Virus record (IMG/VR): IMGVR_UViG_3300024259_001623
Length of the DNA: 64,000 nucleotides
Strand: one strand, 5' to 3'
Origin: a virus
Lineage: Duplodnaviria; Caudoviricetes
This document shows positions 5,607-14,285 of this stretch, one piece after another (the first letter of the stretch is position 1; every line of letters starts with the position of its first letter). Position numbers and translations under genes: made by a program. The notes beneath the pieces are model-generated. The model was not told the DNA's origin and ran no database searches. It was given only the letters and a program-made list of their open reading frames with translations.

Positions 5607-5963
5607 TTATAGACATGTTGAGAGATTGGCGACTAGCCCCAATAATTTATTATTGATATGATGGATATCACTTGCATCTAAAGAGTTAACAAAATTTATT
5701 GAATGTTGAATTATTTCTTTATCGCAGCCTGTGCTTTTGATATTGCCATCTCTTAATTTATATGTATACACTTTTAAAACATTTGCTAATGAATGCATTT
5801 GATTCATTACTTTTAATACTTTTGGATAATCATTATTTGTATTTGCATCACCATACGCATCTGTCAATTCCATAATCCGCTTGGCTGTTGATATTATCCA
5901 CTTTTCTGCTGAGGGGATATTAGCATCCTGTGCCGTTTTATACCATGATATTATTTTTCTCAA
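5607..5963 (-). CDS. Hypothetical protein with a WYKTAQ leader
   Basis: N-terminus MRKIISWYKTAQ. Confidence 0.75.
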   Translation of the reverse strand: MRKIISWYKTAQDANIPSAEKWIISTAKRIMELTDAYGDANTNNDYPKVLKVMNQMHSLANVLKVYTYKLRDGNIKSTGCDKEIIQHSINFVNSLDASDIHHINNKLLGLVANLSTCL

Positions 5964-6004
5964 ATTTATTTTTCCAATAGTGAGAATGCGTTATCTCTTT
6001 TTAT

Positions 6005-6349
6005 TTAATCGTTATATTCAAAAGTTTCGCCAGCACCAGCACGACCTAACAGGTCAACTAATTTCTCGGACAGGCCGGGATATTCCATGATCTCATTAGT
6101 TATATCTAGCCTAGCTCCATCAGAGGCTCTTAACCAAATTATATTATCTATCTCATAATTGGCAGTTTCAGTAGGATTCTCCCAAGTATCTTTGAAACCA
6201 GGATTGAAAGTTCCATTGACCTCTACTTCGATATAATCTTCATGAGTCATTTCTTCAAACATAAAATCATTAGCGTTGATGTTTAATGTCTCAGAAAAAG
6301 TTTGACCATAAGATAATTTGCTAAAAGATGCAGTCTTTATTTTTTTCAT
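6005..6349 (-). CDS. Acidic hypothetical protein with a KIKTAS leader
   Basis: N-terminus MKKIKTAS. Confidence 0.75.
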   Translation of the reverse strand: MKKIKTASFSKLSYGQTFSETLNINANDFMFEEMTHEDYIEVEVNGTFNPGFKDTWENPTETANYEIDNIIWLRASDGARLDITNEIMEYPGLSEKLVDLLGRAGAGETFEYND

Positions 6350-6361
6350 TACAAGCTCCTA

Positions 6362-6982
6362 TTAATTTCTTATATATAAGTAAACCGCATCATGTATTCC
6401 ATCCCATTTAGGTATATCAATACGTTCTACTTGCGACCATTCATTCTCAAGAGTGCAATGAAGGTCGTCATCTCCAGTGCATCCCCACCCTCCTTCTCCA
6501 ACATAAACTAGCTTATTTCCTTTAAAATTCTTTATAGCTTCATTCGCCATTGAATCAGCATATGGAGGCCAAACTGTCATCAAAACTCCATAACCACCAT
6601 ATTTCTCTAAAGCTTTTAAAGCATCTAAACTCTCTACATGAGTAAAAGACTTAGAAGAAGGATTAAATTTTTCTCCATAATAATCTGAATGTGCATCAGT
6701 AGCGGCAATATCTGCTCCTTCATCCTGTAGCAACTTGGCCCATAAACCATAACCAGCACCAATCTCTAATATTTTTTCGCCGGCAATAAAATCATTTATT
6801 TTTGATATGGCTTCTCTATTGGGAACAGACCAACCATAATCTTTTATATATTTATCTCTTCTATACCAATCCATCAAAGATTTATGCTTTTTATCTTGTA
6901 ATTCGTCAAGATAACCTTCACCGCCAGGCCCATAATGCTCCAAATCCTCATATAGCCCCATTGATGTTTTGTACCAATTCAT
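6362..6982 (-). CDS. Class I SAM-dependent methyltransferase with an MNWYK leader
   Basis: Motif I ILEIGAGYGLW. Confidence 0.8.
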   Translation of the reverse strand: MNWYKTSMGLYEDLEHYGPGGEGYLDELQDKKHKSLMDWYRRDKYIKDYGWSVPNREAISKINDFIAGEKILEIGAGYGLWAKLLQDEGADIAATDAHSDYYGEKFNPSSKSFTHVESLDALKALEKYGGYGVLMTVWPPYADSMANEAIKNFKGNKLVYVGEGGWGCTGDDDLHCTLENEWSQVERIDIPKWDGIHDAVYLYIRN

Positions 6983-7356
6983 TAATTATACTCAAATATT
7001 CTAGGATTTCCAAATGCCCTATCTAACTCTTTTATAACCCTCTTTTTAGCAAAATCCATTCTGCTGATCGGGCCATCATAAACTATCGCAGGAAAATATA
7101 CCACACTGGCTGTATGCCTTTTAGCTTCATATCTGCCTCTAGCAAACATTTCATTCTTGTCTGGCCATAAGTCCAAATGAGTCAAAGTTTTACCTTCTTC
7201 ATTATATAAGTCTTTTATATCTAAACTAAAATCTTTATACATAACCCATATCTTATCGCCAGGAGCATCCTTATGTCCTACACTTAAATAGAAAGGATTC
7301 TCATATCTAGAATCATCAACAGGCAGGGCTATTTTTATTTGTTTATACCAGTTCAT
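6982..7356 (-). CDS. MNWYK paralog family protein (copy 1)
   Basis: Leader MNWYKQIKIALPV; YLSVGH, W, H, ARGRY, LD..FGNP. Confidence 0.9.
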   Translation of the reverse strand: MNWYKQIKIALPVDDSRYENPFYLSVGHKDAPGDKIWVMYKDFSLDIKDLYNEEGKTLTHLDLWPDKNEMFARGRYEAKRHTASVVYFPAIVYDGPISRMDFAKKRVIKELDRAFGNPRIFEYN

Positions 7357-11860: not shown

Positions 11861-12649
11861 TTAATTCCACCTGTATATATCCGGATTCCCGTAATAGTTA
11901 TCTAGAAAGCTTTCTACTCTTTTCGTCATATGTTCTAATCTTCTAGGATTTTCTCCTAGAGTATAATCCATTATTAAGCTTGCCTTTTTTTCTCCATCAC
12001 CAAACTCGTCAAATCTTCCTTTTGCTATTGCATCAAATACTTTATCACCAAATATCGAATTATGAGTGTTGCCACCCTTTCTAGGAATAGCTAACATTTC
12101 CCAATTTTTAGTTATTAACCATAATTCAGATTTGACTGGAGATTCTCCTCTTTGATTATAACTATGTTCGTGACCTATATCCAAATAGTCAAGACCATGA
12201 ATGTCTTTCTCCATTACAGGCAACGCAGTCTTTATTTCTTTATTAGCATATCTATAAATATTTGGATTCCCATACTTCTCATCTAAAATCTTTTCGATTC
12301 TGTTCATGAAATATTCTTCTCTGCCTGGATGATGAGCTTGTACTCCATAATCTAATAGAACACTTACATATTTATCTCCATCAGAAGATTCATCATATCT
12401 TCCCCTTGCTATGCCATGCAAAAAAACATCTGCTTGAAATTCAGATACATGAGTATTACTATCTGTTACAGGAACAGAAATAAATTCCCATTTATCATTG
12501 ATATACCATATTTCAGCGTATACAATTTTTCTTCTGTTTAATACACTGTTGTAGTTAGACGGCATCCTATGTCCAATATTTGTATAATGAACAGGAGGAT
12601 CTTTCTCCGTTATAGGTAACGCTATTTTTATTTCTTTATACCAATTCAT
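11861..12649 (-). CDS. MNWYK paralog family protein with two tandem domains (copies 7 and 8)
   Basis: YTNIGH...ARGRYD...GNP, then KEIKTALPV and YLDIGH...AKGRFD...GNP. Confidence 0.9.
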   Translation of the reverse strand: MNWYKEIKIALPITEKDPPVHYTNIGHRMPSNYNSVLNRRKIVYAEIWYINDKWEFISVPVTDSNTHVSEFQADVFLHGIARGRYDESSDGDKYVSVLLDYGVQAHHPGREEYFMNRIEKILDEKYGNPNIYRYANKEIKTALPVMEKDIHGLDYLDIGHEHSYNQRGESPVKSELWLITKNWEMLAIPRKGGNTHNSIFGDKVFDAIAKGRFDEFGDGEKKASLIMDYTLGENPRRLEHMTKRVESFLDNYYGNPDIYRWN

Positions 12650-13116
12650 TAATTAAATACCGATATCTTAGGATTATTAAAATGTTTATCTACAGATCTA
12701 AGCATCATTTTTTCAACATGATTTCTTCTATTAATGGAATATCCTCTTAATGCAGAAGTATATACGAAAGAAACTATATTGTTATCTCCTTCATATCTAC
12801 CTTTGGCTAAAATAGATTGATCTAGAAGCCCCCAGACATCCCAATGAGTATATCTTTTGATAATACCTATATCATTAACACCTATCGCTGGATTCTCAAT
12901 TATCTCATAATTTTTTTGCATTATCCATATAGTTTCTTTATTTTTATCTATTTTTTTCTTGACTGATTTTTGAGCTTCTGGCTCTAGTTTATGAAAAATC
13001 ATACCTTCAACATCTCCAATTTCAAAATATCCTTCATGACCATAATCCATATAATGACTTGATGGAATAGTCTTATCAACTGGAAGAGCTAATTTTATTT
13101 GTTTATACCAATTCAT
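12649..13116 (-). CDS. MNWYK paralog family protein (copy 9)
   Basis: YMDYGH, AKGRYE, VDKHFNNP. Confidence 0.9.
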   Translation of the reverse strand: MNWYKQIKLALPVDKTIPSSHYMDYGHEGYFEIGDVEGMIFHKLEPEAQKSVKKKIDKNKETIWIMQKNYEIIENPAIGVNDIGIIKRYTHWDVWGLLDQSILAKGRYEGDNNIVSFVYTSALRGYSINRRNHVEKMMLRSVDKHFNNPKISVFN

Positions 13117-13530
13117 TTAAAACTCATATATTGCTGGGTTATTGAATTCTCTATCTAATATATTAGAAACTTGTTTTTTAATATATTCCATCCTTCTAGG
13201 GTTTGTTGTATCTGGATCTACATTAATTGCTACGCTAGTTTTTCCTGAACCATCTCTGTGTTTTATATATCTTCCTGATGCTATAGAATCTTTTGATCTA
13301 TAACTAAAATCTAAATCAAAGGCGTAGTCATGAATCGTTCCGATGTTCATGTCAGTTACGGGGATAGTCTTAATATCAAAATTATAATCTATTGTCCACA
13401 AAATCTCTTGAACAACTTTATCAAATCTAAAATGTTCCATCTTGTCATAATGACCTATATCTGTATAGTCCATCTCTCTTGGAACATTAACTACAGGTAA
13501 TGCTAATTTTATAACTCTATACCAATTCAT
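13117..13530 (-). CDS. MNWYK paralog family protein (copy 10)
   Basis: YTDIGH, ASGRY, LDREFNNP. Confidence 0.9.
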   Translation of the reverse strand: MNWYRVIKLALPVVNVPREMDYTDIGHYDKMEHFRFDKVVQEILWTIDYNFDIKTIPVTDMNIGTIHDYAFDLDFSYRSKDSIASGRYIKHRDGSGKTSVAINVDPDTTNPRRMEYIKKQVSNILDREFNNPAIYEF

Positions 13531-13914
13531 TTAAAACTCATATATAACAGGATTATCAAATTGAATATCTAATATTTTATGTACTTTTTCTTTAATCTTT
13601 TCTAATCTTCTAGGATGTAAATCACCTTGATATGTATTTATAATAAGACTAGTTTTCTTTTTTCCAGCTAAATCTAATATAAATCTACCAGAAGCAATTG
13701 AATCATAATACATTTTGCCAAAAAAATCAAAATGAGCATCTCTCTGCGTTTCCGGAGTTATAGGATAAGATTGGAAATTCCAATTTTCGTCTACTATCCA
13801 TATGATTTCTTGTTGATTAAATTTTTTATCAGTATGCCCTATGTCTGAATATTGCATATAACCAGGCGTATCAACAACAGGCAATGCTAATTTTATTTCT
13901 TTATACCAATTCAT
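13531..13914 (-). CDS. MNWYK paralog family protein (copy 11)
   Basis: YSDIGH, ASGRF, LDIQFDNP. Confidence 0.9.
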   Translation of the reverse strand: MNWYKEIKLALPVVDTPGYMQYSDIGHTDKKFNQQEIIWIVDENWNFQSYPITPETQRDAHFDFFGKMYYDSIASGRFILDLAGKKKTSLIINTYQGDLHPRRLEKIKEKVHKILDIQFDNPVIYEF

Positions 13915-14285
13915 TATTCATAATCATATATTGCAGGGTTATCAAATGTCTGATCCAATATTTTCGCAACTCTTTGTTTAATAAATTCTAATCGTTGTGG
14001 AGATGTTTCTCGCAATATAAAATGGGACCAATAAACGCTTACTACTTTTTCTCCATTTTCTTTTTGCATAAATCTACCATAAGCCATTCCGTTTTCTAGC
14101 TCATCTTCTGTAAAAATATTAACATGATTAAGGGCTTCTGTATCCGTTTTTATATTCCAATTTTTATCTATTAACCATAATGTTACATTATTTTTATTCA
14201 GACCATGACCTATATTAACATAATGTTGCGGTTTGTTTCGCTCCGTTATAGGCAATGCGATTTTTATAACTCTATACCAGTTCAT
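13914..14285 (-). CDS. MNWYK paralog family protein (copy 12)
   Basis: YVNIGH, AYGRF, LDQTFDNP. Confidence 0.9.
   Translation of the reverse strand: MNWYRVIKIALPITERNKPQHYVNIGHGLNKNNVTLWLIDKNWNIKTDTEALNHVNIFTEDELENGMAYGRFMQKENGEKVVSVYWSHFILRETSPQRLEFIKQRVAKILDQTFDNPAIYDYE

Follow-up and report, generated by a model that had tools for sequence, protein, structure and literature searches.

A near-invariant N-terminal tag on unrelated proteins of huge phages as a candidate capsid-targeting signal

The DNA analyzed here is a stretch of 64,000 nucleotides, called the window below, from an uncultivated marine phage of ~435 kb in the Caudoviricetes (Duplodnaviria; IMG/VR record IMGVR_UViG_3300024259_001623). 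It carries an array of genes whose predicted proteins share a short N-terminal tag, MNWYK and a few residues after it, that may direct them into the phage head. An open reading frame (ORF) listing and a six-frame regular-expression scan reveal 16 ORFs in an unbroken row on the minus strand, from 13914-14285 down to 6362-6982, of which 14 start with MNWY[K/R], one with MSWYK and one with MNNWYN. Adjacent genes overlap or abut, with junctions of -4 to +2 nucleotides. Outside the array, the six-frame scan of the window finds no M[NS]N?WY, and all six frames together contain just 19 NWY. The same numbers had been given by a sequence-only reading, made by a model from the letters alone, which described 16 consecutive genes starting with M-N/S-(N)-W-Y, 14 of them with MNWY[K/R], and proposed that the shared start is an address label for loading into the capsid.

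Sixteen adjacent genes and the DIGH family

Eleven of the 16 genes are paralogues that together encode 12 copies of a domain termed DIGH. Four of them open the row, at 13914-14285 (start MNWYRVIKIALP), 13531-13914 (MNWYKEIKLALP; the member modeled below), 13117-13530 (MNWYRVIKLALP) and 12649-13116 (MNWYKQIKLALP), and are followed by a tandem double DIGH protein (11861-12649) whose second repeat keeps KEIKTALPV and has lost MNWY (YRYAN). The other six lie at 10504-10884 and 10132-10503 (both MNWYKTIKVALP), 9683-10132 (MNWYKQIKLAVP), 9243-9680 (MNWYRQIKIALP), 7356-7739 (MNWYKKIKIALP) and 6982-7356 (MNWYKQIKIALP).

The remaining five genes encode other bodies. A 2H-SAK phosphoesterase (11399-11860; PF22547, 6.4e-11) starts with MNNWYNKNFSIKVAS and has a K-V-A-S site of the type found in the phage scaffold described below. 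The canonical form of the tag is carried by a 173-amino-acid protein of unassigned fold (10881-11402; MSWYKVAQ) and by a KptA/Tpt1- or PARP-like protein of the ADP-ribosyltransferase (ART) superfamily (7736-8437; MNWYKQAQ). The latter is modeled by AlphaFold2 (AF2) with a predicted local distance difference test (pLDDT) score of 91.6, and its top Foldseek matches are KptA/Tpt1 and PARP. The second unassigned body, 269 amino acids long (8434-9243; start MNWYKQIKLAVSGEYWIDDSG), has an N-terminal domain that is again tagged in other huge phages and is joined to a DIGH domain in one of them (P0118). The last gene of the row encodes a class-I S-adenosylmethionine (SAM)-methyltransferase-like protein (6362-6982; MNWYKTSMG) that matches phrog_19090 (1.6e-34), carries the motif EIGAGxGLWA, and matches Methyltransf_23 only below the cut-off. 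The sequence-only reading had named methyltransferase, ART-like and 2H phosphoesterase bodies, and the PHROG, AF2/Foldseek and Pfam results agree with it. Its further statement that the bodies are often unrelated holds for these three and for the 65 body clusters found beyond and within the window, and not for the 11 paralogues.

Two downstream neighbors on the same strand, to which it had also drawn attention, carry related leaders. A 114-amino-acid acidic protein (6005-6349) has the alternative leader MKKIKTAS, with a scaffold-type K-T-A-S; the MKxIKTA form recurs on a DIGH relative (P0112) and on a protein of the head module of this phage (MKRIKTAQ). A 118-amino-acid protein (5607-5963) begins with MRKIISWYKTAQ from a TTG start, and ISWYKTAQ forms its residues 5-12. 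The TTG lies five codons ahead of SWYKTAQ, and ATA stands where the ATG of the tag would be expected, as if the original start had been mutated.

The DIGH family takes its name from a Y-x-D-I-G-H motif. Its members are ~125 amino acids long, and those of the window share 16 invariant alignment columns. The full motif set, Y-x-D-I-G-H ... W ... H ... G-R-Y ... S ... L-D ... N-P-x-I, lies in an α/β domain of ~110 amino acids behind K-x-A-[L/F]-P. A profile search of 1.84 billion representatives produced 216 relatives at E<=0.001 (132 at E<=1e-10), nearly all of which start with MNW[YF]. The AF2 model of the member at 13531-13914 has a mean pLDDT of 82, with residues 1-10 below 50, and forms a short β-bridge at IKxALP. 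Fold searches for the family (PDB Foldseek, VIA-align wide, and ESM Atlas) yielded nothing above noise (best Z 4.8, TM ~0.5). The invariant residues H27, H54, R71, S83, and D111 hint at an enzymatic role.

Because internal DIGH copies, in the tandem protein and in fusion proteins, retain K-x-A-[L/F]-P while MNWY usually goes, the IKxALP stretch is part of the DIGH domain and is distinct from K-x-A-[Q/S]. The sequence-only reading had described one leader ending in K-x-A-[L/V/Q/S]; its Q and S endings fit the scaffold motif, and its L and V endings are the DIGH domain element. Some relatives (P0001, 686 amino acids; P0032, P0066, P0103, and P0136) have up to five DIGH domains fused, or DIGH joined to a zincin-like HExxH domain. 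In a few fusions, NWYK persists internally where the parts join, which fits the fusion of neighboring tagged genes or polyprotein processing.

A portable peptide in front of unrelated domains

Searches of IMG/VR with back-translated patterns produced 5+36 tag loci, in which a looser scan detected 96 tagged ORFs, frequently arrayed on one strand. In its portable form, the tag reads M-N-W-Y-K-x-[A/S/I]-[Q/K], with the canonical eight-residue form MNWYKxAQ; Q occupies position 8 in 58 of 107 tagged proteins across the clade. When the window genes are included, 101 bodies fall into 65 BLAST clusters that are spread over ~30 viral contigs. These contigs all belong to a single clade of uncultivated aquatic phages with genomes of 430-550 kb. 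A search of related phages had been suggested in the sequence-only reading, and it shows 65 unrelated body clusters with the tag. Literal literature searches for MNWYK and WYKKAQ returned nothing relevant.

Pfam and PHROG models recognize AAA_33/polynucleotide kinase (4), GNAT (4) and cREC_REC (2) among the tagged bodies, as well as G6PD, InPase, ART-PolyVal, Tad6, PolyA_pol, SLT, HicA, and an ArdC-N/zincin-like protein. The recognized Pfam folds bear the tag as a plain prefix. Single PHROG matches are to "minor head protein," "virion structural protein," and "DarB-like antirestriction"; two further PHROG batches did not pin down the individual carriers of these three matches. In some tagged proteins a transmembrane helix immediately follows the tag. 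One locus (L007, 11652-12974) encodes a complete G6PD (G6PD_N 8e-46, G6PD_C 6e-63) in which MNWYKWAQ stands directly before the Rossmann strand, and the preceding gene starts with MSWYKWAQ.

The shared start could, in principle, reflect plain paralogy, each domain having inherited it as a structural part of its fold. Eleven of the 16 window genes are indeed paralogous, and IKxALP lies inside their domain. However, the 65 unrelated clusters include well-known Pfam folds with the tag prefixed, untagged homologues exist, and the tag residues are predicted with low confidence in AF2 models. In the ART-fold model, the first ten residues have a pLDDT of 65 and the remainder >90; the tag is a run of eight polar, aromatic, or basic residues directly ahead of folded domains. 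Plain paralogy is hardly credible as the general explanation. For MNWYK it is largely refuted, and it holds solely for the IKxALP stretch. The same division applies to the concern, voiced in the sequence-only reading, that the leader might be an integral strand of each domain: this holds for IKxALP, and the models speak against it for MNWYK.

Near homologues of the methyltransferase and ART-fold proteins have the tag at 35-50% body identity, and it is absent from the most distant homologues; among ART-fold homologues, 55 of 76 are tagged. Tag columns are conserved at 0.85-0.94, compared with a body mean of 0.53. At the nucleotide level, the tag codons are AAC 52 and AAT 42; TAT 92 and TAC 9; and AAA 77, AAG 15, and AGA 9. 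Since synonymous codons vary freely, selection acts on the tag peptide, and a nucleotide-level signal is ruled out by the same variation.

These data bear on the proposal that the tag has no targeting role at all. It could be an element of expression or stability, acting through initiation codons or residues or through host proteolysis, or it could be a recombination scar left at gene starts by cassette shuffling. Several features are compatible with such a role: neighboring genes touch or share bases (TAATG, ATGA), Shine-Dalgarno sequences are scarcely visible in the window, codon 2 is AAC in 55% of cases compared with 22% in the bodies, and tagged genes form arrays of unrelated cassettes. 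However, Trp and Tyr are invariant while synonymous sites are free, which argues for a peptide and not an RNA signal. The tag also persists at body identities down to ~35%, MNWY decays once a domain becomes internal while the remainder stays, and host genomes do not use the tag. Because neither variant of the proposal accounts for the motif that the tag shares with the scaffold, in addition to these points, we consider it quite unlikely.

MNWYKxAQ has 11 matches in bacterial and archaeal genomes totaling 596 Gb, compared with ~17 expected in a back-of-envelope estimate of chance. Because cellular genomes show the tag at about chance, host machinery that acts on host substrates is unlikely to be its reader. 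Two classes of known leader were considered and rejected. A Sec, Tat, or lipoprotein signal peptide would be used by host proteins and would have a hydrophobic region of 10-15 residues ahead of a signal-peptidase site; the tag has no hydrophobic core and is not above chance in cellular genomes. A recognition leader of the radical-SAM type, or one like those of ribosomally synthesized and post-translationally modified peptides, is disfavored because the window block, beyond which co-occurrence was not surveyed widely, contains no dedicated modifying enzyme, and the S8 protease (discussed below), the one neighbor that looks conserved, is unlinked in relatives.

A motif shared with the protease-scaffold

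Complete carriers of the tag are five viral genomes of 461-548 kb (G001-G005), with 1-10 exact-pattern matches each and none to the reversed pattern; fragmentary carriers have CheckV completeness of 9-42%. All five complete genomes share one unusual type of head module, which comprises a portal gene, a polyprotein of ~1830-1960 amino acids, and a major head protein of 287-294 amino acids (phrog_2522). The polyprotein is encoded between the portal and capsid genes. A head maturation protease (phrog_18299) occupies its first ~200 residues, and the whole is called the protease-scaffold here; in G004 it is split into ORFs of 833 and 957 amino acids. The head genes of the clade are missed by the Pfam S78 and Phage_capsid models and were detected by PHROGs.

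A letter-for-letter copy of the window's ART-fold protein (P0167) is found on a contig of 434,625 bp. A protease-scaffold orthologue of 1936 amino acids (P0321) has the same longest contig and comes from the same sample, so that locus L093 is the head module of this very phage. In P0321, the protease domain covers about residues 35-256, and the protease-scaffold family has 193 hits. Samples with this phage are JGI 3300024258 and 3300027996, ENA ERZ27250271 and its siblings, and SRR7624229. There, 2-4 kb downstream of the major capsid gene, lie the genes for a 497-amino-acid PcfJ protein that starts with MNWYKICIAAG and for the 125-amino-acid protein that starts with MKRIKTAQ. A head protein encoded upstream of the portal contains FNFKKAQ and FNWKEAQ. 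The portal gene of L093 has an intein (Hom_end_hint, Intein_splicing; 1523-4867), and a TnpB gene (OrfB_IS605/Cas12f-like; 17672-18796) resides within the head module. Many protease-scaffold orthologues (P0247, P0272-P0274, and others) contain inteins with LAGLIDADG endonucleases.

The second half of the tag corresponds to a motif, K-x-A-[S/Q], that is repeated in the protease-scaffold. With expected counts derived from sequence shuffles, P0321 has 13 occurrences compared with 1.5 expected, and the orthologues of G001, G002, G003, and G005 have 10, 8, 7, and 13, respectively, compared with ~1.4 expected for each. The two split ORFs of G004 have 3+7, a count without a shuffle control. In 120 orthologues from a set of 5.8 billion, the mean is 12.4 compared with 1.8 expected, a ~7-fold excess; the reversed motif has a mean of 1.85 in the same proteins, and permuted controls are at chance level. 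In the G001 proteome (681 ORFs), all four of the proteins most enriched for K.A[QS] belong to the head module, and the remaining 124 thousand amino acids have 41 occurrences compared with 44.8 expected.

In the scaffolds, the residue after K-x-A is preferably S (7.7-fold), Y (6.6-fold), Q (5.4-fold), or F (5.2-fold), and L (0.67-fold) and V (0.68-fold) are depleted; ahead of the K, L or M is preferred, followed by I or V. Four leaders of the window can be paired with sites in P0321: FSIKVAS with KIIKVAS and KMEKVAS, MKKIKTAS with DKIKTAS, SWYKTAQ with DLVKTAQ, and SWYKVAQ with AAVKVAQ. Many protease-scaffolds themselves start with M-x-φ-[IY]-K-x-A-[S/T], for example MAIYKTAT or MAFIKRAS.

A motif common to tag and scaffold might mediate binding and not cleavage, in which case tagged proteins could dock to the membrane, the replication compartment, or the capsid exterior. 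The transmembrane helix straight behind the tag in some proteins would suit such docking, and cleavage at K-x-A-[S/Q] is itself only a prediction. However, the motif is densest in the protein that bears the maturation protease domain and is encoded between the portal and capsid genes, and multiple short sites in a scaffold classically mark it for proteolytic removal (PMC5694885). A role in binding alone thus seems improbable.

Candidate functions of the tag

The explanation that we favor, at about an even chance of being correct, is that MNWYKx[A/S]Q is a capsid-targeting propeptide that resembles the capsid-targeting sequence (CTS) of phage T4 and ends in a site for the head protease. The tag would direct unrelated enzymes into the assembling prohead, including ART-fold, 2H phosphoesterase, methyltransferase, kinase, GNAT, ArdC-like, PcfJ, and DIGH proteins. 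M-N-W-Y would be the docking element, and the adjoining K-x-A-[S/Q] would be recognized by the head maturation protease. The same motif would mark the ~1900-amino-acid scaffold, to which the protease is fused, for cutting into pieces. Once the cargo is loaded, the tag would be trimmed; the cargo would remain with the DNA and, on ejection into the next host, supply an early kit for counter-defense and for RNA and NAD repair. The DIGH paralogues of the window, which have MNWYK without a canonical cleavage site, may retain the tag or be cut elsewhere.

A broader proposal, on which we place somewhat less than even confidence, is that the clade uses the eight residues as a code (MNWY for docking, K-x-A-[S/Q] for release) to load the capsid with interchangeable enzymes, dozens of them in each genome, that are injected with the DNA. 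That these enzymes would include ARTs, RNA-repair enzymes, kinases, acetyltransferases, a homologue of the anti-Thoeris protein Tad6, and even G6PD is suggested just as tentatively.

The address label that the sequence-only reading proposed is supported in part: the tag is modular, selected as a peptide, phage-specific, and outside the predicted folds, and its K-x-A-[Q/S] is shared with the scaffold. Overstated in it is the extent of the leader: 11 of the 16 genes are paralogues whose IKxALP is a domain element, and K-x-A-[L/V] is depleted in scaffolds. Several observations weigh against capsid targeting in general. That K-x-A-[S/Q] is a cleavage site, and not a scaffold motif repeated for some other reason, is an inference. 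A scaffold-type K.A[QS] site is present in no more than 5 of 18 window proteins, and the final L or V of 12 IKxA[L/V] leaders is disfavored after K.A in the scaffolds. The W-Y ahead of K in the tag is unlike the L/M or I/V of scaffold sites. If tagged bodies meet the protease, internal sites should be depleted; the bodies have 11 internal K.A[QS] compared with 9.0 expected, which is no depletion. G6PD and proteins with a transmembrane helix just after the tag are unexpected as capsid cargo, and tagged genes are often far from the head modules. A comparison of the DIGH family with 50,697 GenBank phage records gave no match. A predicted complex between the N-terminal 45 residues of a tagged protein and the protease domain of G001 (residues 50-262) scored 0.01, which speaks neither for nor against targeting.

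The main rival, itself unlikely, is that the tag is a handle for another phage-encoded partner in the cytoplasm that has nothing to do with the capsid, such as a chaperone, an assembly hub, or an S8 subtilase that would process, activate, or destroy the tagged proteins at a set time. An S8 subtilisin-like protease (14380-15468, minus strand; PF00082, 1.8e-57) is the first gene of the same-strand block and lies directly upstream of the array with no predicted terminator between; a scan for promoters and terminators gave results at chance level. Between its catalytic Asp and His, the protein has a very basic stretch of ~65 residues (15073-15267, minus strand), ~50 more than in relatives, that contains SWARYWKKQ and NLKSAQKK. 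The NLKSAQ of the latter, a scaffold-type K-S-A-Q site, can be counted in favor of this partner. Subtilisin-type pockets suit a large P1 residue and a hydrophobic P4 residue, and M-N-W-Y would offer Tyr as P1 and Met as P4. S8 homologues are present in 4 of 5 related complete genomes, and G6PD and the kinases would be cytoplasmic cargos. However, the closest S8 homologue (54% identical, in the 499-kb genome G005) is distant from tagged genes and has a 15-residue loop in place of the insert; in G004, a tagged gene is present and S8 is absent. The S8 protease was rejected as a conserved partner because its linkage to tagged genes is absent in relatives. A cytoplasmic partner would also leave unexplained why the second half of the tag is the repeated motif of the scaffold.

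Capsid targeting by an N-terminal peptide has several precedents. Mullaney and Black reportedly worked on the T4 capsid-targeting sequence. In T4, the CTS is carried by the internal proteins IPI, IPII, and IPIII, by Alt, and by gp24 (reviewed in PMC5694885 and PMC9026906), and the protease gp21 uses one motif both to cut the scaffold and to remove CTS propeptides of 10-20 amino acids from the internal proteins and Alt (PMC5694885). The parallels are that one N-terminal peptide is common to unrelated cargo of a single phage (here 16 window genes and 65 clusters), that the T4 peptide ends in the prohead-protease motif also used on the scaffold core, a part that K-x-A-[S/Q] would play here, and that T4 cargo delivered with the DNA includes an ADP-ribosyltransferase, as an ART fold is tagged here. 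In contrast, MKTYQEFIAE of T4 and MNWYKxAQ are unrelated sequences, and the T4 cleavage motif is [L/I]-x-E and not K-x-A-[S/Q]. The protease of the present phages is fused to a scaffold of ~1900 amino acids, and their HK97-type capsid protein of 290 amino acids has no delta domain. The scale is also far larger, with dozens of candidate cargos in each genome and no fewer than 65 families in the clade, known so far from sequence alone.

Inner-head and ejection proteins of phiKZ and SPN3US also have propeptides, as in the paralogues gp53 and gp54, whose first 15 residues are identical (PMC5694885). As here, giant-phage paralogues combine a conserved N-terminus with diverging bodies; theirs are internal to the head and carry a protease site in that N-terminus. 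However, those propeptides are mostly >100 amino acids long, have an A/S-x-E motif cut by a T4-like protease, and were proven by mass spectrometry. The antirestriction proteins Dar of phage P1 are packaged by means of N-terminal signals (PMC9024508, PMC12810830). They too are anti-defense enzymes that go into the head, and one tagged protein has the "DarB-like antirestriction" match noted above, but P1 uses no short consensus tag and loads hierarchically through DarA/Hdf.

Polyvalent proteins, which occur in phages and conjugative elements, are predicted to accompany the DNA into the host (Iyer et al. 2017, PMC5512222). Their domain repertoire overlaps that of the tagged proteins (ART-PolyVal, InPase, ArdC-N with zincin, ParB/PcfJ-type domains, methylases, and GNAT). 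However, polyvalent proteins have 2-15 disparate domains in one polypeptide, whereas the tagged proteins are separate, mostly single-domain chains of 100-300 amino acids with a common tag. The tagged proteins thus fall outside the polyvalent definition; they overlap with it in domain repertoire alone and resemble an "unbundled version."

Cargo-loading peptides of encapsulins are likewise short and portable and send unrelated enzymes into an HK97-fold shell. They are usually C-terminal, are not cleaved, and serve a non-viral compartment, so that the resemblance is functional only. The principle of such targeting is already known from the T4 CTS, the phiKZ/SPN3US propeptides, and P1 Dar. New here are the tag sequence, the K-x-A-[S/Q] code, the protease-scaffold context, the clade-wide scale, and the DIGH family.

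The rest of the window has features of its own. Directly downstream of the tagged array, in the same-strand block, an ORF of >1485 amino acids runs off the window end (3-4457, minus strand). Long poly-Ser tracts in it flank β-helix-like repeats of the pectate-lyase type; it has no Pfam match and is probably a fiber or depolymerase. The region 18000-35000 has a GC content of 0.41-0.47, compared with 0.30-0.35 in the array, and interspersed tRNA genes. Very few ORFs >150 amino acids occur there on either strand, whether the standard code is used or any one stop codon is read through, and alternative genetic codes leave this ORF-poor stretch closed. Within it, a 142-nucleotide Rfam tRNA call (31432-31573, minus strand; 36 bits) is not reported by ARAGORN and may be a tRNA with an intron or some other interruption. 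Farther on, the minus strand encodes a eukaryote-like PARP (WGR, PARP_reg, and PARP catalytic domains, 1.9e-28; 47630-48916) and two RNA ligases, Rnl2-like (54107-55234) and T4 Rnl1-like (57328-58491). With the tagged 2H and KptA-like proteins, they give the window a strong theme of NAD and RNA repair.

If capsid targeting is correct, the tag would reveal from sequence alone the "injectome" of uncultivated huge phages, that is, which proteins they bring into the cell right at the start of infection. This set would be apparently rich in counter-defense, NAD/ADP-ribose, and RNA-repair enzymes and in the DIGH family. K-x-A followed by S or Q would then be the cleavage code of a widespread protease-scaffold polyprotein, and the tag would be a compact portable peptide that might load foreign proteins into capsids, a use for which the T4 CTS has been tested. 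Even if packaging is not its role, a near-invariant eight-residue N-terminal motif on at least 65 unrelated families would be a sorting or processing signal.

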